A stretch of DNA of 18,167 nt from a virus (lineage: Duplodnaviria; Heunggongvirae; Uroviricota; Caudoviricetes): IMG/VR virus record IMGVR_UViG_2657245521_000006; one strand, 5' to 3'. How positions within the stretch are numbered: the first letter of the stretch is position 1; each line of letters opens with the position of its first letter. Position numbers and translations under genes: made by a program. The notes beneath the pieces were generated by a model that saw nothing but the letters and a program-made list of their open reading frames with translations, made no database searches and was not told where the DNA came from. Positions 2,800 through 18,167 of the stretch are shown in pieces.

Positions 2800-3479
2800 G
2801 ACTCTACTCCATACATTAAAAGAAATTGAAAATGAATTACACAATGCACAACGACCTGAGTCTACACTCCTTCAACGATATGAAGTATCGAATGAGATTA
2901 AAAAAAAGGAGTTTGTAGTCGCTTTGATCGGTAAACTGATAGAATTGGACCGCCGTCTCTATGTCACATCATTGAAGCCTTAGTTTCAATTTTACCGATT
3001 TATCGCTTAAGGGGTAGGACTTCAACACTACTAAGTGAGCATTGCAGCAGGCATTCAGGGGAATGCTGTGACAGTAGTTAGCTAGGGTAAACCGTTTGCG
3101 CCTGGGGATTTTACTTTGCGACGGAAAATTAAAAAACTATATGATTTCTTATCCCACTAGGATGTCTGCGGACTACTACTGACTGTTTAGGCTATTACGA
3201 GGGGCTCAAACTCAACGTCTGGCATCAACGCAGAACTGAAAAAGTCGCCATGAATGTGGTTACGGTATTTGGTGGGATATAAACGTACCTTCATTTCTAA
3301 GCTTGATAATCACCTTTGTCCGAATTGCCTACGCGATAGTCATGTAGTTTTAGTCATAACCGTTTACCCTATTGATGTCAAGATAAATTGGATAACACTG
3401 ATGAATCGAACCTCTAAATCCTTTGATGGGCCACTCATAGCTGACTGGTTCAAAAAAGTGTTATCAATGGTATGATAAG

Positions 3480-3509
3480 TTGAGATGAAAGGTGTAAATG
3501 AACTATAAT
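3480..3509 (+). promoter_or_regulatory. Candidate sigma70 promoter for the two-gene cargo operon (-35 TTGAGA, 18-nt spacer, -10 TATAAT)
   Basis: TTGAGA at 3480-3485 and TATAAT at 3504-3509, about 35 nt upstream of ATG 3545. Confidence 0.4.
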
Positions 3510-3544
3510 AATTCAACAGTTAATCTGAGAAAAATGGATTATGT

Positions 3545-3814
3545 ATGTCGAATGTAAAAAAAATAGATGCTATAGTTCAAAATTTATTTGAATTCAGAGA
3601 TGCTACAGGTGAACTTACGGATAAAAATATTGTTTTAATACAAAAAATCATAACGAACTTACCTGACTATGCTGGTAAGGATCCATATGAATTTTATTCA
3701 TCATTTTCTGAAGATATTAATGAGTCGCTCAAAGCAATTGCCAATTATCATAAGGCACATGCTAAATACATTAATGCCCTCGATAAATTAGCAGAGCTTA
3801 GGTCGGAGGGGTAA
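3545..3814 (+). CDS. Hypothetical small acidic helical protein (89 aa), first gene of the cargo operon
   Basis: ORF in very AT-rich DNA; followed 2 nt later by the coupled second gene; no family recognised. Confidence 0.6.
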   Translation: MSNVKKIDAIVQNLFEFRDATGELTDKNIVLIQKIITNLPDYAGKDPYEFYSSFSEDINESLKAIANYHKAHAKYINALDKLAELRSEG

Positions 3815-3816
3815 TA

Positions 3817-4194
3817 ATGGCTACGGAAGATATTCAGGCTTTGTTATCTAAAGTTAATGCGTTAAGATTTGAAGATAAAAGAATAGAGAAGGAAACAGGA
3901 GAGATTGAAAATGAAATTCAGGCTCAATTTCTTCGTGATGGTAAAACAAGGAGTACATTAACCATAACATTTATGAGAGGCTTTTTTGGTCTTATCGTTT
4001 TTTCTTTTATATTTGTGATAGTTTATAACTATTGCGCAGTGCAATGGGTACTTCAATTACAAAGCAAAGGGCTCATGGAGGCTTCTAAAAGTATCGCACT
4101 ACTTGAGTTAGATAAGGTGTTATCTATTATGGTTAGTGCGTTAGGAACATCTCTTGGGTTTATAATTGGCTATTATTTTAAAGACAAAAAATAA
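3817..4194 (+). CDS. Hypothetical membrane protein (125 aa; cytoplasmic coiled N-terminus plus two predicted TM helices), second gene of the cargo operon
   Basis: Strong SD GGAGGGG before ATG 3817; hydrophobic segments LTITFMRGFFGLIVFSFIFVIVY and VLSIMVSALGTSLGFIIGYYF; terminator downstream. Confidence 0.65.
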   Translation: MATEDIQALLSKVNALRFEDKRIEKETGEIENEIQAQFLRDGKTRSTLTITFMRGFFGLIVFSFIFVIVYNYCAVQWVLQLQSKGLMEASKSIALLELDKVLSIMVSALGTSLGFIIGYYFKDKK

Positions 4195-4269
4195 ATAATT
4201 TAATTTTACATTGCTATTTATGTTTTGCTTTTAAGATTTTTAACTTTCTAGATGTAGAGTTATTGTTAA

Positions 4270-4297
4270 AGCACTGGTATTTGCCAGTGCTTTTTTA
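4270..4297 (+). terminator. Rho-independent terminator closing the cargo operon
   Basis: Stem AGCACTGG / CCAGTGCT with loop TATTTG, followed by TTTTTT. Confidence 0.55.
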
Positions 4298-4695
4298 TTA
4301 AAATCCGCGGATTAATGACGGCAATCATGAATACTCCTCCAAAGACTGATCCAACGATACGGGTGTATAAGTCACACTTGTTTAATCTGTGATTGATGGC
4401 ACTATAATTTATGTTGCACAACATAAACTGCCGATGGAGGGAATTGAGTGCTGAGCATGTCAGACATAAGTGTGTTGTCGAAGGTCTCCTCAGGCATGGT
4501 TTCTGCATAACGTCGACACTTGAAAGCCTCCATAATGACAATAAAGTATAAGTATTATCATTATTAATTGTCACTTGCCGTTGCGACATGCTTGGGCGGC
4601 GACCGCCTAAGTTCTCTTTATAAATGAGAAGTTCCCGCTAGCGACCGTTTCTGATTCCTTTTTTTCTACTAAGTTTGTATCAAATAAACAGGATA

Positions 4696-5064
4696 ATGCC
4701 GATGCCAGCACGAGCAAAGCGTCCATGCCGGCACAAGGGCTGTGCGGCAGTTACCAACGATGCCAGTGGCTATTGTGATCAACACCGACAGCGGCATGCT
4801 GGTGATGGCTGGCGTAACTACCAGGCAGGAAAGAGCAGGCAGGAACGTGGATATGGGCGGACCTGGGAAATTAAACGGGTGCGTATCCTTCAGCGTGATA
4901 AGTACCTGTGTCAGAACCATCGCCGGCAGAAGATTGCAAAAAAGGCGACCAGCGTTGACCACATCATTCCAAAAGCTCATGGCGGTACTGATGACGATTT
5001 CAATCTTGAGTCGTTGTGCTGGGACTGCCACAGAGCGAAGACGGCAAGAGAGCGTATCCGATGA
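4696..5064 (+). CDS. HNH endonuclease, phage packaging-associated (HK97 gp74-like position)
   Basis: C-terminal HNH motif ...DHIIPKAHGGTDDDFNLESLCWDCHRAK; Cys/His-rich N-terminus; just upstream of terminase genes; start ambiguous between ATG 4696 and 4702 (SD AGGA at 4689-4692 favours 4702). Confidence 0.85.
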   Translation: MPMPARAKRPCRHKGCAAVTNDASGYCDQHRQRHAGDGWRNYQAGKSRQERGYGRTWEIKRVRILQRDKYLCQNHRRQKIAKKATSVDHIIPKAHGGTDDDFNLESLCWDCHRAKTARERIR

Positions 5065-5398
5065 GTTAGACCCATTGCACATATTTTGGTTCACGGCTCT
5101 ATACAATAGCTAACTGCCCAAAATAATGGGGTGGTTCATCGCGCCGCGCCAACCTGCACTGCAGCTATTGTGGGCAGTCAGGGCATAACTCTAGTGCCTG
5201 TCCACATAATGAGAGCTGCGGTCGTCGGCGCAGCCTGAATGATGACTTCCATCTTGATTGATGCCCACACAGGCCAGGGGAAGGGGGGATCAAATCCCTG
5301 ACCCCTTTCGCCTTCCAGGACTGCCGCCTGAAGGACATTTTTGCACGTCATAAATAAGGATCTTTTTTCCGGTAGGTTTCACCTATTAAAGAGGAGTT

Positions 5399-12818: not shown

Positions 12819-13218
12819 GGTTGAAGGACTGGCGGAGCTGGAGAAAAGCCTGCTAGCGCTCGGGGAAAACATTGCCCTGAATATCGTACGCGACGCCGGT
12901 ACGAAAGCCATGCAGCCGGTGGTGGATGAAATGATAAGGCACGCGGGATTTAACCCTGATAATGACGGGGAGCATATGCGTGACACCATCCGGGTAAGAA
13001 GCCGTAGCCGTGTCAGGGATGGCCGCTGGCCGACCCTGATGACATTCCGGGCGGGCCCCTCAGCACCGCACACGATAAAAGCCCGCGCGCAGGAGTACGG
13101 TACGTATAAACAGGTCGCCATACCCTTTATGCGACCAGCTCTCGATAACAATATTCCCAAAATCCTTAGCACGCTTGCACGTGAAATTCGTGCGGGCATT
13201 AACAGTTATAAACAATAA
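12802..13218 (+). CDS. Tail component, HK97 gp10-family-like
   Basis: ATG 12802 with GGGGAGG 8 nt upstream; MRISVEVEGLAELEKSLLALGENIALNIVRDAG... fits the gp10-family N-terminal pattern (memory). Confidence 0.65.
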   Translation: MRISVEVEGLAELEKSLLALGENIALNIVRDAGTKAMQPVVDEMIRHAGFNPDNDGEHMRDTIRVRSRSRVRDGRWPTLMTFRAGPSAPHTIKARAQEYGTYKQVAIPFMRPALDNNIPKILSTLAREIRAGINSYKQ

Positions 13219-13232
13219 GCACGAGGTCAGAC

Positions 13233-13703
13233 ATGACAGGTAAAACATCATCTGAGTACGCGACCCTTCCGGCAGGATCGGCCGTGAAGTGGGGGATGCC
13301 CGGCGACAATGTCGCGGCGCTGAAGCCACTGAAAAGCTGTACCGGCGTGGGGGCGATGGGGTTACAGGGTGGTTTTGTTGACTGTACCACGCTGCTGGAC
13401 ACCCAGAAGCAGTACATTTCGGATCTGCCTGACGGACCGGATAAGACGCTGACGTTTGTTGATGATCCGGAAGACCAGTATCTGACGGATTTTCTGAACG
13501 CAGCAGAGCGTCGCGAGGTGGTGCAGTTTTACGTTGAACTGCCCAATGGTCGCACATCAACGTCAGTTATTGCGCTGGCGGGCTGGCAGATGGCGGAAAT
13601 CAAGGCTCCGGCGAGCGCAGTCATCCAGCTCGAGGTGAAGGGTAAGCAAAACTCCATTACATGGGGAAGTAAAGCCACTACCCCGGTTACCCCAAAACCA
13701 TAA
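13233..13703 (+). CDS. Major tail (tube) protein, lambda gpV-like N-terminal domain
   Basis: 156 aa; ...YVELPNGRTSTSVIALAGW... resembles lambda V (...[20 protein letters not shown]..., memory); precedes G/GT chaperone genes. Confidence 0.75.
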   Translation: MTGKTSSEYATLPAGSAVKWGMPGDNVAALKPLKSCTGVGAMGLQGGFVDCTTLLDTQKQYISDLPDGPDKTLTFVDDPEDQYLTDFLNAAERREVVQFYVELPNGRTSTSVIALAGWQMAEIKAPASAVIQLEVKGKQNSITWGSKATTPVTPKP

Positions 13704-13770
13704 TCGCCCGGCGCCACACGTTAAACGCATCATTTCCTGTTACCCCTTCTGTAAATAAGGACTCTGATAA

Positions 13771-14118
13771 ATGAAAAATCTGAAAAGCGCGCTGCTGTCT
13801 GCCACCCATACGGTTGCGGACTGTACCCTGCTGGGCGTGCCGGTGCACATCCGTCGTATGAGTGCACTCGAGGCGGCAGACTACGACGATGCCATCGCAG
13901 ATGCCCGCGCAGCGAATAATGCGCTGGTCCCCGCCCGACTCAGTGCCGGACTCATCCTTTCAGTGCTGGTGGATGAAAACGGGAATGCCATTCCACCCAA
14001 AAGCCTCCCCACCGTGGATGAGTTGCTGGCCGTACATGATAACGCCGCCCTGATTGAGGCTGTGTCAGTTATTCAGCGGCACAGTTACGGGACGCTGGAG
14101 GAGGCGCAAAAAAACTGA
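13771..14118 (+). CDS. Tail assembly chaperone (gpG-like)
   Basis: 115 aa between major tail and tape measure genes; ends at a slippery heptamer. Confidence 0.75.
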   Translation: MKNLKSALLSATHTVADCTLLGVPVHIRRMSALEAADYDDAIADARAANNALVPARLSAGLILSVLVDENGNAIPPKSLPTVDELLAVHDNAALIEAVSVIQRHSYGTLEEAQKN

Positions 14119-14357
14119 GGCAATCTCCCTGGCTGTTGCTGGCTTACCAGCTGGCTGACCGCCTGGGAGAACCCGATCCACTGAAAATTCTGTCTCTGCC
14201 AGCTTCTGTTCTGATGGGGTGGCTGGCGTTTCTTAATCTTCCGGAAATTAATGGTATGGCACCTGGCGACCCGCCCGACAGCGGACTGAATGTACCGGCC
14301 ATTTCACCGGATGATACTGCCGCGGCCTGCGCTGCTTTTATGAGGGTGATGAAATGA
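13771..14357 (+). CDS. Tail assembly chaperone frameshift fusion product (gpGT-like), via -1 shift at 14109-14115
   Basis: Post-shift frame reads ...KLRQSPWLLLAYQLADRLGEPDPLK... (the track ORF 14136..14357 is this frame); extension stop TGA 14355-14357 overlaps tape measure ATG 14354. Confidence 0.6.
14109..14115 (+). promoter_or_regulatory. Programmed -1 ribosomal frameshift slippery heptamer A_AAA_AAC
   Basis: In-frame codons CAA AAA AAC TGA; the -1 frame is open from here to 14357 and ends in overlap with the tape measure start. Confidence 0.6.
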
Positions 14358-17326
14358 GTGGTAATGCCGGAACGCTGGCGGTCAGTCTGCATGTGAACAG
14401 CGCCTCTTTCAAAGCCGACCTTATGGATGCTTATCAGACCGGCAGCCGTGAGGCCCGGCGATTTGCTGAGTCCACCCGCAGGGAAATGAAAGAGACCGGG
14501 GATGCCATCGGCAGTGTGGGTACCAGTGCCGGAGGGCTGGGACGCACTTTCGAAGGCCTTTCCTCGCGCCTGAAAACAGGAAGCGGCGGCTTTGATCAAC
14601 TGCGTAGTGCTCTCAATGGTTTTGCTGCCACGGGGAATGTGTCCGCCAGTACGCTGGCTAATGCCCTGGTACCGGCGATATCCCGGACGCTGACGGGGGC
14701 TGAACAACTGAAAGGTGTACTCGCGCAACAGCGGGACGCGTTCAGCAAAACCGCTCAGGCGGCATATGATGCCGCCCGGGCGCAAATCCAGTCGGCGCAG
14801 GCGGCAAAACAAAAAGCACTGGATGTGGCACAGAGCGCGGCAAAAGACTATGAAGCAGCGAAGGCTGTCGAAGAAAATGCCGTGGCGCTGGCGCGTCATT
14901 ACGATCAGCAGCAGAAAGTCAATAAAGAGTACGGTCTTGCGGTCAGTTACAGAGAGGAATACCGGAAGATAAACGCGCAGCTTAAAGAGTCAGACATGGC
15001 GGCCAGCGTCGCCAAACAACGGGTGGCTGCGGCGGGAAAGGCAGCGGCAGAAGCGGAGGCACTGGAAGCACTCGGAAAGTCGAAGCTCTCGGATGCCATG
15101 CGTCTTATCAGCGCCAGGAACTATGAGATTTCTCTGTCAGCGCGTGCCGCCGCCGCGGGTACCGCGTTGCTGAACGGTGCACTGGCGATGGTAGGCGGGC
15201 CGGTCGGTCTGGGGATTATTGCGCTGGTTTCTGGCGTGACGGCACTGTGGTCTGCCTACAGCAAAGCTGAAGAAAAAACGAAAGCCCTGAATGCGGCATT
15301 ACTGCAAGGCAATAGTGGCGCGTCACTCAGCCTGACCCGGATCCGGGCGCTGAATAAAAGCCTGGGTGACACGGATGGCTCCATGAAGGCAGTGACGGCC
15401 GCGGTTAAGGCCGGGTTCAGCGGCGAGATGCTGGATCGCGTGTCCTCACTCGGTAGCCAGCTGGAATCACTGGGGGGGAATGCTGATGAGCTGGTCCGAC
15501 AGCTGTCATCCATCAGTGGCGATCCGGTCAAAGCGATGCAGGATGCCACGCAGCAGGGGTACGAATTTAATGCTGCGCAGATAGAGCAGATTGCCACCCT
15601 GGCCCGCCTGGGTAAAACCGCCGAGGCGGTGGCGCTGGTGCAGAAAATCATGCTTGATGACGTTGCGGACAAAATGAAGGAGCAACAGCGTCAGACTGAG
15701 GAGAGCATTGGCTGGTGGGAGAAGCTGAAGAAAGCTGTTTCTGAAGGGCTTGAGGGCTACGCTTCAGCGCAGATTGAGACCAGTCGCGCGATGGCGGCCG
15801 CGGTGGGGGTGGATATTGATGAGCCCGCCCGAAAGCTCAAAGAGAAGCGGGACGAAGAGAAAAAACAGGAGGAAGACCGGGCTCAGGCCGCCCGTCAGCG
15901 CCAGGATGAGCAGAGCAAAGAAATCACCGCCCAGATAAATCTGGCCGCCTGGATCAAGGCCGGGACGGATAAAACCCGTCTTGCAGCAGAAGCCACCGCC
16001 GATCTCAGTACCCGCTATAAGGCCGGAAAAATCACCGCTGATGAGTACGCTTCTGCCCTGAGAGGGATAGACAAACTCTACGGTGATAAAAAAACCGGGG
16101 TGTCCGCCCATCAGGACAGCGAGGGTGTTCGCCGTCTGGCGCAACTGAAGCAACAGGAAGTGGTGCTGAAAGCGCAGGGGCGTGAAACGGAGCGGATGGG
16201 TGAAAGTCAGAAAAAATTACTGGCTTTTGAACAGGAAATCGCGTCTTACGCCGGGAAAAAACTGACAAAGGTCCAGGAAAGCGTACTGGCTATGCAGGAT
16301 CAACTGCGTGCCCAGCTTGAAACAAACGCAGCCCTGGAGAAGCAAAACGCACAACGTAATCTTGCCGTGACGCTTGAAAAGCAACTCCGGGATGTCAGGG
16401 AGGAAACGGCACGCCGTCAGCAGGAGCAGAATAACGCTGCTGCTCAGGTGACGATGAGCGACCGGGAATATGAGCAGATGGTCACCCTGCAACAGATCCG
16501 TGAGGATTTTGCGCAGAAACAGAAAGCGCTCGATGAGGAGGTAAAAGACCATTCATCAGTGCTTTACCAGGCACAGACACAGGCGCTTGCCGAAGAAATG
16601 CAGAGGCAGACTGAAATCGTCAAAAAAGGCGCCGAAGACAAAAAAGCGGCTGAGGAGGATTTTGCGGGAGCTGCCGCCGCAGGCATGAAGAACTGGATGG
16701 ACAAGGCCGGTAACTATGCACAGCAGATAAAGGACGCAGTGTCGAACGCCATGGACGGGCTGGCGGATAATATTGTCGCCACCCTTAACGGCAATAAAAG
16801 CTCATGGCGTGACTGGGGGACGATGATACTCCAGACCATTCAGAAAATTCTGGTGAATGCCGCGCTGGTTAACGGCCTGAAGGCACTGGGCGGATCACTG
16901 GGTGGTGCCGGAGGGATCCTGGGAGGGATTGGCAGTGCAATTTCCGGTGTGGTGGGTAATGCCCGGGGGGGCGTCTATGACTCTCCGGGACTCAGTGCTT
17001 ACAGCTCTACTGTCGTCGACAGGCCCACGCTGTTTCCGTTTGCCAAAGGGGCGGGACTGATGGGGGAAGCGGGGCCGGAAGCGATTATGCCGCTGACCAG
17101 AGACAGTAAAGGTCGTCTGGCCGTCACCGCGACGGGAATGGAAGGGACGGGAGGTGGCGTGGTGGTTAATCAGCAGTTCAGTGTGCACATACAGAATGAC
17201 GGCAGTAACGGTGAAATAGGCCCCGGCGCGCTGAAGATGGTGTATGAGATTGCCGAACAGGCAGCAATGAAAACACTGACTGTGCAGGGGCGTGATGGTG
17301 GCAGGCTGAGCGGAGCATACAGATGA
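14354..17326 (+). CDS. Tail tape measure protein (lambda gpH-like)
   Basis: 990 aa, Ala/Gln/Glu-rich coiled coil with Gly-rich C-terminal region; after G/GT and before gpM. Confidence 0.9.
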   Translation: MSGNAGTLAVSLHVNSASFKADLMDAYQTGSREARRFAESTRREMKETGDAIGSVGTSAGGLGRTFEGLSSRLKTGSGGFDQLRSALNGFAATGNVSASTLANALVPAISRTLTGAEQLKGVLAQQRDAFSKTAQAAYDAARAQIQSAQAAKQKALDVAQSAAKDYEAAKAVEENAVALARHYDQQQKVNKEYGLAVSYREEYRKINAQLKESDMAASVAKQRVAAAGKAAAEAEALEALGKSKLSDAMRLISARNYEISLSARAAAAGTALLNGALAMVGGPVGLGIIALVSGVTALWSAYSKAEEKTKALNAALLQGNSGASLSLTRIRALNKSLGDTDGSMKAVTAAVKAGFSGEMLDRVSSLGSQLESLGGNADELVRQLSSISGDPVKAMQDATQQGYEFNAAQIEQIATLARLGKTAEAVALVQKIMLDDVADKMKEQQRQTEESIGWWEKLKKAVSEGLEGYASAQIETSRAMAAAVGVDIDEPARKLKEKRDEEKKQEEDRAQAARQRQDEQSKEITAQINLAAWIKAGTDKTRLAAEATADLSTRYKAGKITADEYASALRGIDKLYGDKKTGVSAHQDSEGVRRLAQLKQQEVVLKAQGRETERMGESQKKLLAFEQEIASYAGKKLTKVQESVLAMQDQLRAQLETNAALEKQNAQRNLAVTLEKQLRDVREETARRQQEQNNAAAQVTMSDREYEQMVTLQQIREDFAQKQKALDEEVKDHSSVLYQAQTQALAEEMQRQTEIVKKGAEDKKAAEEDFAGAAAAGMKNWMDKAGNYAQQIKDAVSNAMDGLADNIVATLNGNKSSWRDWGTMILQTIQKILVNAALVNGLKALGGSLGGAGGILGGIGSAISGVVGNARGGVYDSPGLSAYSSTVVDRPTLFPFAKGAGLMGEAGPEAIMPLTRDSKGRLAVTATGMEGTGGGVVVNQQFSVHIQNDGSNGEIGPGALKMVYEIAEQAAMKTLTVQGRDGGRLSGAYR

Positions 17327-17785: not shown

Positions 17786-18167
<382 letters not shown>

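Follow-up and report, generated by a model that had tools for sequence, protein, structure and literature searches.

In long-tailed phages, a conserved G/GT frameshift of the tail assembly chaperone gene is said to have been described by Xu et al. in 2004, and the G/GT system of phage lambda has reportedly been studied by Levin, Hendrix and Casjens (in 1993) as well as by Xu, Hendrix and Duda (in 2004, 2013 and 2014). The slippery site of lambda is located a few codons before the stop codon of G, and a stop codon lying beside a slippery run, an observation attributed to Weiss et al. in 1987, is reportedly a classical stimulator. The locus described in this work, which is part of the 18,167-nucleotide stretch of viral DNA that was analysed as a whole (hereafter the window), resembles the lambda system in that its chaperone gene, which lies between the genes for the major tail and tape measure proteins, would give rise to a rare G-T fusion by a -1 shift close to its end. 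The likeness extends to the need for a low ratio of the two products, which is about 1:30 in lambda, where only ~1 GT per 30 G is required (PMC5009743), and to the expectation that neither product is present in virions. However, the heptamer of lambda, G_GGA_AAG, is efficient in E. coli, whereas that of the window, A_AAA_AAC, is weak and stands flush with the stop codon, and the window site is flanked in addition by an SD-like element on its 5' side and, 8 nt to its 3' side, by a covarying hairpin. Further, the T segment of the window matches no Pfam family, including the T family of lambda, and its G is related to the chaperones of the HK97/lambda type only at the level of the fold.

The heptamer of the window is identical to that of insA-insB' of IS1, where A_AAA_AAC is a proven low-level -1 site that operates in Enterobacteria and provides a fusion of low abundance, its scarcity being of functional importance (PMC4066793). 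The product of IS1 is a transposase rather than a virion assembly factor, and no stimulator has been established for it, whereas the site in the window has a conserved downstream stem. In E. coli, A_AAA_AAC is inefficient and much less shifty than A_AAA_AAG (PMC5009743, PMC4066793), and when unstimulated it supports a shift of > 0.1% (PMC4066793). The dnaX gene of E. coli and IS911 share with the window an SD-like element upstream, an all-A heptamer and a hairpin a few nucleotides downstream (PMC4066793, PMC5009743). Their heptamer, however, is A_AAA_AAG, whereas that of the window ends in C and places tRNA-Asn rather than tRNA-Lys in the A site, for which a lower efficiency is expected; the SD spacing in the window lies toward the lower limit of the stimulatory range in comparison with dnaX/IS911; and the shift in dnaX truncates the protein, whereas the shift in the window would extend it. 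The first-pass annotation of this DNA, which was made from the sequence alone, had set the all-A slippery site apart from the usual G/GT pattern. Such a site is not unusual, as it is present in every intact member of the chaperone family that was examined, in phiKO2, and also in IS1 (PMC4066793).

The named phages that are nearest to the window by their proteins are phiKO2, PY54 and Fostie, with ~40-48% identity. In all three of them G closes with GAA AAA AAC TAA and the -1 frame continues as KKL..SPWL.LIF.LADRWGEPDP. The gp13/gp14 genes of the Klebsiella phage phiKO2 (NC_005857) share with the window a G protein of the Phage_TAC_14 family, the heptamer with its adjoining stop codon (GAA AAA AAC TAA), the T motifs SPWL..LADRWGEPDP..LPA...CAAVMR and the location between the major tail and tape measure genes. 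The downstream stem is shared as well, its arms being CUCGCCC/GGGCGAG in phiKO2 and UCUCCC/GGGAGA in the window. In GenBank, gp14 of phiKO2 is annotated as a joined CDS with the note 'putative programmed frameshift from Gp13', whereas Yersinia phage PY54, Escherichia phage Fostie and others contain equivalents of gp13/gp14 without a fusion annotation. phiKO2 differs from the window in that the amino acid identity is ~40-43% with no DNA similarity by megablast, and in that it is a linear plasmid prophage, whereas the window is of the integrated-prophage type.

The window represents the late region of a siphovirus prophage. Its order begins with two holins and a GH19 endolysin, and these lysis genes are followed by a head module consisting of the small and large terminase, portal, S49 protease, HK97-type capsid and connector proteins. 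The tail part of the window comprises the tail tube, the TAC_14 ORF, the tape measure and a gpM-like minor tail protein. The prophage is of the Escherichia/Salmonella type; its head module is HK97-like and its tail module lambda-like. The gene order in the tail part is Phage_TTP_13, Phage_TAC_14, the -1 ORF, tape measure and gpM-like, so that two overlapping ORFs, G and T, are flanked by the genes for the major tail and tape measure proteins, which is the arrangement of the class of Xu et al. 2004. The tape measure gene has a GAGG of its own at 14342-14345. The features of the locus are listed in Table 1.

Table 1. Positions of the features of the G/T locus and of its flanking genes in the window.
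Feature	Position	Strand	Basis or remark
Major tail tube protein gene, 156 aa	13233-13703	+	Pfam Phage_TTP_13 E=9e-58; PHROG 158 major tail protein; directly 5' of the chaperone gene
G, tail assembly chaperone ORF, zero frame, 115 aa, 12.1 kDa (predicted)	13771-14118	+	Phage_TAC_14; PHROG 25875 and 344
SD-like GGAGGAGG	14097-14104	+	SD-like in the sense of Sharma et al. 2014 (PMC4066793)
Slippery heptamer A_AAA_AAC	14109-14115	+	X_XXY_YYZ phase of G
Zero-frame stop TGA adjoining the heptamer	14116-14118	+	Read in the sequence
Downstream hairpin	14124-14170	+	8-nt spacer; base stem UCUCCC 14124-14129 / GGGAGA 14165-14170
T segment, -1 frame, 80 codons + TGA	14115-14357	+	Predicted C-terminal extension of GT only
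Tape measure protein gene, 990 aa	14354-17326	+	Pfam TMP_4, Tape_meas_lam_C and TMP_2; PHROG 24 E=2e-104

G is homologous to tail assembly chaperones. It matches the Pfam family PF16462 (Phage_TAC_14) with E=2.7e-23 and a score of 82.6 bits, as compared to the gathering threshold of 22.1. The AlphaFold model of G has a pLDDT of 87.4 and a pTM of 0.78, and the best match of this model in the PDB by Foldseek is 2OB9, the tail assembly chaperone of HK97 (prob 1.00, E=5e-3, TM ~0.5), which indicates a modest likeness between the predicted fold and that structure. The hypothetical GT fusion aligns with 194 of the 195 positions of PHROG 25875, 'tail assembly chaperone' (E=1.8e-57), and because this family spans the whole fusion, such fusions have already been deposited. 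For the T segment, no match was obtained in Pfam even at E<=10, the T family of lambda being among those without a match, and none in NCBIfam or among sequence relatives in the PDB. However, the alignment of the proteins from relatives reveals conserved motifs in T, viz. SPWL..LADR.GEPDP.KI..LPA and a C-terminal CA..MR. The likeness to G/GT that had been proposed at first for this locus is supported by the gene order, the fold match to 2OB9, the match of the fusion to PHROG 25875 and the conservation of the heptamer together with a coding -1 ORF.

The anatomy of the site is largely as first annotated. The 115-codon ORF of G is closed by ...GAG GCG CAA AAA AAC TGA, and the heptamer within it stands in the phase of the G frame that tandem slippage calls for. 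The A-run at this site covers 14108-14114 (7 A). The -1 frame, which had been reported to be open for 81 codons, is indeed open past the site, but its length is 80 sense codons counted from CTG 14115, a trivial difference. Its stop codon (TGA 14355-14357) overlaps the start of the tape measure gene (ATG 14354-14356) within ATGA 14354-14357, in agreement with what had been noted. Upstream of the site the -1 frame is open from 14058, and in the resulting G/T overlap of 20 codons the heptamer is the only X_XXY_YYZ motif. The predicted GT fusion consists of 195 aa (20.6 kDa).

A megablast search with positions 13200-14500 against phage records and complete E. coli genomes gave no matches, and relatives were therefore reached at the protein level. 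In total, 141 loci (142 including the window) were collected, from a protein search combined with contig look-up, from viral contigs and from genomes sampled at one per species; the genera represented are Escherichia, Salmonella, Klebsiella, Serratia, Yersinia, Xenorhabdus, Photorhabdus, Providencia, Morganella, Pantoea, Erwinia, Edwardsiella, Arsenophonus and Plesiomonas. When genome contigs were scanned on the basis of an alignment, loci were found, and a scan with a single protein confirmed none. Many of the loci were retrieved by peptide patterns that included ...KN(L) or ...GEPD(P), which biases the amino acids but not the choice of codons; loci outside of the KN pattern (e.g. L005, L006, L078, L124, L131-L133 and L138) and those from the plain protein search have the same site. 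AAAAAAC with an adjoining TAA or TGA, and with T in the -1 frame, is present in 137 of the 142 loci including the window, and the heptamer and a coding -1 ORF are conserved in relatives down to ~32-40% identity. Among the remaining loci, L124 has its stop codon TAA mutated to TTA, while its heptamer, T frame and hairpin are retained; in L016 and L018 there is one extra A and G and T are fused in frame with a KK-L junction; in L099 (Edwardsiella) an extra T places G and T in one ORF, the junction of which, KKN-L, is the same as the predicted trans-frame junction; and L139, from an Arsenophonus endosymbiont, has one A fewer.

A representative set of 50 relatives sharing < 93% identity was used for the examination of codon usage and coding frame. 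NNA AAA AAC was invariant at the site in all 50 representatives, its first codon being GAA in 29, AAA in 15, CAA in five and in one (L006) the rare codon CTA, which also keeps position 1 of the heptamer. Elsewhere in the same G genes, only 55% of the E/Q/K codons end in A, Lys is encoded by AAA in 68% and Asn by AAC in 46% of the cases, so that the synonymous alternatives to the codons of the heptamer are used 32-54% of the time. The length of the A-run in these representatives is 6 (1), 7 (34), 8 (12) or 9 (3), whereas the phase of its 3' end is fixed. Upstream of the site, the mean column entropy by codon position in frame 0 is 0.88/0.61/1.53; downstream of it, the values are 0.88/0.67/1.54 in frame -1 as compared to 0.67/1.54/0.88 in frame 0. 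As the variability that is characteristic of third positions moves to the -1 frame downstream of the site, the coding frame changes at the heptamer. The -1 frame of Fostie opens five codons before the end of G, and an overlap that can be as short as five codons (L003) pins the shift to the heptamer. In 19 of the 50 relatives, no ATG, GTG or TTG is present in the T frame through codon 28, and in the remaining relatives none of the start codons in that region is preceded by an SD. Since no T start preceded by an SD was found, T would be made only as an extension of G. These sequence comparisons indicate that T is coding and that it is without a start of its own. The first-pass annotation had named, as part of the grounds for giving up the frameshift, a -1 ORF that is not conserved as coding in homologous phages; the switch in periodicity, the protein alignment and the 137 of 142 loci all show that this ORF is conserved as coding.

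The 65 nt that lie 3' of the heptamer in the window fold to -29.2 kcal/mol (z=-3.16). The fold is a long imperfect hairpin which begins 8 nt after the heptamer, and RNAalifold on the ungapped alignment of the 50 representatives recovers its base stem. A check for a stimulatory structure had earlier been proposed for 14116-14160; a structure does exist, but it spans 14124-14170. In its base helix of 6-7 bp, 90% of the cells are paired, as compared to 78% when the alignment is shuffled and <=53% when the partner strand is slid, and the covariation score is 0.294, as compared to 0.097 for shuffled alignments (0/500 reach it) and <=0.107 with a slid partner. These statistics are without phylogenetic correction, but the slid-partner control keeps the relatedness of the sequences. 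The stem pairs that vary are synonymous third positions: the pair between the third positions of Ser TCN and Gly GGN is GC in 27, CG in 11, AU in six and UA in one of the sequences, and that of Pro CCN with the last base of a Trp/Phe/Leu codon is GC in 20, CG in 18 and UG in three. At a position of the stem that is C-G in the nearest relatives, the window itself has a compensatory U-A pair. The base stem is present in the single-sequence minimum free energy folds of 45 of the 50 relatives and is missing in five, and the mean fold energy at the site is -25.1 kcal/mol in comparison to -15.3 kcal/mol for windows of the same size elsewhere in the same loci. The conserved stem is short (6 bp) and encloses a 35-nt region that differs between lineages, and neither the apical pairs of the hairpin nor the outermost pairs (14116-14120 with 14172-14175) in the window are conserved. 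An all-against-all scan of alignment columns from -60 to +117 revealed no pseudoknot, no other convincing helix and no upstream hairpin, and Rfam gave no match at E<=1 in 13900-14400. A 4-bp purine/U-rich pairing of -10 to -7 with +36 to +39 was rejected as spurious, as it lies inside the ribosome footprint. The hairpin at 14124-14170 is hence a conserved RNA structure with a covarying base stem, and its 8-nt spacer and covariation place it among the structures of the dnaX/IS911 type, which are located ~5-9 nt after the heptamer.

Upstream of the heptamer, GGAGGAGG is located 6-10 nt before its second base. SD-like elements at this distance fall in the stimulatory range of Sharma et al. (PMC4066793), and GGAGGAGG thereby supplies the window with an upstream SD-like element of the dnaX/IS911 type. 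Such an element is present in 37 of the 50 diverged relatives and missing in the other 13. At the Glu position of the element GAG is used in 36 of 47 cases, as compared to 40% GAG elsewhere in the same genes (Fisher p ~2e-6, uncorrected for phylogeny). The evidence for a role of this element, which is not universal, is suggestive. Synonymous replacements of GGAGGAGG are codons of the GAAGAAGC type.

Based upon these observations, the site is very probably a programmed -1 ribosomal frameshift of a siphovirus tail-assembly-chaperone gene. In the mechanism that we propose, most ribosomes would read ...CAA AAA AAC and halt at TGA, releasing G, whereas a minority would slip back by one base when the P site holds tRNA-Lys at AAA and the A site tRNA-Asn at AAC, or shortly after that moment. 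The two tRNAs would re-pair on AAA AAA, and the next codon to be read would be CUG 14115. Translation of 80 further codons would then give GT, with the junction ...EEAQKN-LRQSPW... and an end that coincides with the start of the tape measure gene; the junction peptide expected from a ribosomal -1 shift is AQKNLRQSPWLLLAYQLADRLGE, with Asn at residue 115. If lambda is taken as a guide, the tape measure protein would be coated by the G sequences that both proteins contain, and the major tail (tube) protein would be recruited by the T part, which only the rare GT has. Because A_AAA_AAC is weak in E. coli, an adequate output of GT would depend upon the putative stimulators: the hairpin, GGAGGAGG and the abutting stop codon would together raise shifting on this heptamer to the few percent that tail assembly needs.

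Two other explanations would dispense with the fusion altogether. T could be an independent small gene translated from a start of its own, e.g. TTG 14136, which opens a 73-aa ORF (14136-14357). A separate ORF of 67-76 aa is indeed given by ORF lists and gene callers in several relatives, and PHROG 14748 has been built from such calls. However, TTG 14136 is not preceded by an SD, the 19 relatives that are without a start in the first 28 T codons and the absence of an SD at the starts of the others speak against such a gene, and the conservation of T (L..SPWL) is already evident at codon 1 of the -1 frame, before any candidate start; we regard this explanation as very improbable. CUG 14115, considered as an unconventional start after GGAGG, was rejected, as relatives have CUA at this position. 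The other explanation holds that the -1 ORF is non-coding and that the heptamer coincides by chance with a Lys-Asn C-terminus. The bare string AAAAAAC is common, occurring in 13 copies in the window where 4.2 are expected, and the significance of the site therefore rests upon phase, position and conservation and not upon the string. Among the plus-strand copies inside genes, slippery phase was found only for that at 14109; one in the large terminase gene (6319) and four in the tape measure gene stand in another phase, one at 3131 is outside of any called gene, and the phase check covered the plus strand, the seven other copies being on the minus strand. A chance overlap is, however, at odds with the coding periodicity and protein motifs that the -1 frame exhibits from Escherichia to Plesiomonas and Arsenophonus, with the invariant choice of synonymous codons in the heptamer and with an ORF that always ends at the start of the tape measure gene; it is refuted by the comparative data and we give it practically no credence.

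The one serious alternative to a ribosomal frameshift is transcriptional slippage on the A-run. In this case, RNA polymerase would add one A at 14108-14114, and the A8 mRNA would encode ...AQKK-LRQ..., with Lys115. The A-run is homopolymeric over 7 nt in the window and over 6-9 nt in relatives, the changes of run length in L016 and L018 (+1 A) and in L139 (-1 A) indicate that it is prone to slippage, at least by DNA polymerase or in sequencing, and the polymerases of potyviruses insert an A at ~2% on GA6 (PMC5009743). Efficient slippage of bacterial RNA polymerase, however, has been documented at 9 A or T (PMC5009743), whereas the run is <=8 in 47 of the 50 representatives and only 6 in one of them. 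The length of the run varies, but the phase of its 3' end is invariant; a polymerase would be indifferent to this phase, which is the defining feature of slippage by tandem tRNAs. The conserved hairpin 8 nt downstream is in the position of a ribosomal stimulator, whereas polymerase slippage is known to be stimulated by a nascent RNA hairpin that lies directly upstream, and none was seen in the pair scan. Programmed slippage is marked by a run of ~9 A or T or by a nascent hairpin just upstream, and the window has a run of 7. Moreover, the natural in-frame fusion in L099 reads KKN-L. Since the runs are mostly <=8, phase rather than length is conserved and the structure lies downstream, transcriptional slippage is disfavoured and we consider it improbable. 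A variant of the ribosomal frameshift, which yields the same product and is not exclusive of it, is a single slip in the P site, in which peptidyl-tRNA-Asn moves from AAC to AAA while the slowly decoded UGA or UAA occupies the A site, after which CUG is read. In its favor, the zero-frame stop codon adjoins the heptamer in 49 of the 50 representatives and in 137 of the 142 loci, which is tighter than in lambda. However, position 1 of the heptamer, which is needed only by a two-tRNA slip, is invariant even where the rare codons CTA and CAA must be used to keep it, and L124, in which no stop codon adjoins, keeps the heptamer, the T frame and the hairpin. The invariant first base would favor a two-tRNA slip over a slip in the P site at the stop codon, and we consider the latter to be unlikely, less so than slippage by the polymerase.

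Our results support the view that this frameshift is real, strongly conserved and of an already known kind, the site in this family having already been annotated in phiKO2. The covarying hairpin and the fixed arrangement of the elements, which we did not find described, are modest additions; in the searchable literature and in Rfam, no description of the cassette was found. We tentatively put forward, as quite possible, that one fixed recoding cassette is shared by the whole Phage_TAC_14 family in Enterobacterales siphoviruses and prophages, and that the G/GT output is set by the hairpin if the latter is a true stimulator. In that event, the output would be determined by RNA structure and not, as in lambda, by an efficient heptamer, and the cassette would constitute a natural, tunable, low-level -1 programmed frameshifting module. 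For annotation, the T extension has been missed or called as a spurious gene of 67-76 aa in most relatives, including RefSeq-style annotation of prophages, and a rule that a TAC_14 gene ending with A_AAA_AAC and a stop codon is to be joined at the C would correct many prophage annotations. Biologically, the system is nothing new in kind, but the family is convenient for studying how a weak heptamer is tuned to an output of a few percent, and a family of all-A sites could help in separating ribosomal from polymerase slippage.

Carriers of this proposed cassette would include phiKO2, PY54 and many prophages of Escherichia, Salmonella, Klebsiella, Serratia, Xenorhabdus and others. The order of its elements is SD-like GAGG, A_AAA_AAC, the abutting stop codon, a spacer of 7-8 nt and the hairpin, the base stem of which is preserved through synonymous substitutions that compensate each other in the Ser-Pro and Gly-Glu codons of T.

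The motif AAAAAAC occurs 13 times in the window as against 4.2 times expected from shuffled sequences, a count that was reached in none of 200 shuffles. Several of these copies lie within the tape measure gene (for example, at 15273, 15860, 16089, and 16256). Seven of the 13 lie on the minus strand. Among the plus-strand copies, for which the phase was checked, none other than that at 14109, which forms the predicted frameshift site at the end of the tail-assembly-chaperone gene (G), is in the slippery phase of its gene. In related loci from other phages and genomes, the −1 frame extension (T) has either been missed by automatic gene callers or called as a separate gene of 67–76 aa with an internal start. 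No Pfam or NCBIfam model was found for T, and the family PHROG 14748 ("unknown function") appears to have been built from such separate-gene calls.

A number of relatives carry altered forms of the site, which are listed with the other features in the table below. These variants could be real forms that produce only the GT fusion or have decayed, they could reflect phase variation, or they could be sequencing errors in a homopolymer. In an ungapped alignment of 50 representative relatives, numbered from the heptamer, a 4-bp pairing of −10 to −7 with +36 to +39 was formed in 89% of cases. This pairing, which is not formed by the window's own sequence, is probably a by-product of composition.

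Features of the window and of related loci (L-numbers; positions within each locus)
Feature	Position	Strand	Remark
T, missed or called separately	L005 2366-2593
T, missed or called separately	L007 2366-2569
T, missed or called separately	L011 2345-2575
T, missed or called separately	L012/L013 2363-2575
Site variant	L016 1837-1850		One extra A (A9); G and T fused in frame
Site variant	L018 1826-1840		One extra A (A8); G and T fused in frame
Site variant	L099 1771-1785		Edwardsiella prophage; extra T; in-frame fusion reading KKN-L
Site variant	L139 1837-1850		Arsenophonus endosymbiont; one A lost; T placed at +1
Site variant	L124 1829-1861		Erwinia prophage; adjacent stop lost; G 9 codons longer
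4-bp pairing partners	about 14098-14101 with 14144-14147		Purine-rich SD-like segment with U-rich Ile-Phe codons
Holins (lysis cassette)	462-1116
GH19 endolysin (lysis cassette)	1116-1730
DUF4145 protein, 233 aa	2143-2844	-	Between lysis cassette and terminase genes, opposite strand
Several small ORFs without family	3254-5113		After DUF4145 gene

The prophage module is restricted to Enterobacterales apart from short contigs in two assemblies labelled as Alphaproteobacteria, viz. Martelella alba (L094) and Limoniibacter endophyticus (L134), whose sequences share 59% and 37% identity, respectively, with GT of the window. These two occurrences may be due to contamination or to horizontal transfer.

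Within the window, the DUF4145 gene together with the small ORFs may constitute a moron or accessory region. At the 3′ end (17786-18167), an ail/lom-like outer-membrane gene with a signal peptide is interrupted after 28 codons. An intact copy is present in the E. coli prophage L004, which is 98.5% identical to the window, and identity with that copy is lost at about 17858. An IS3-family orfA-like ORF extends from about 17929 past the window's end, and the arrangement looks like an IS insertion into the moron. The sole Rfam match in the window, isrC (RF01387; 17925-18047, 150 bits), overlaps the start of the orfA-like ORF.
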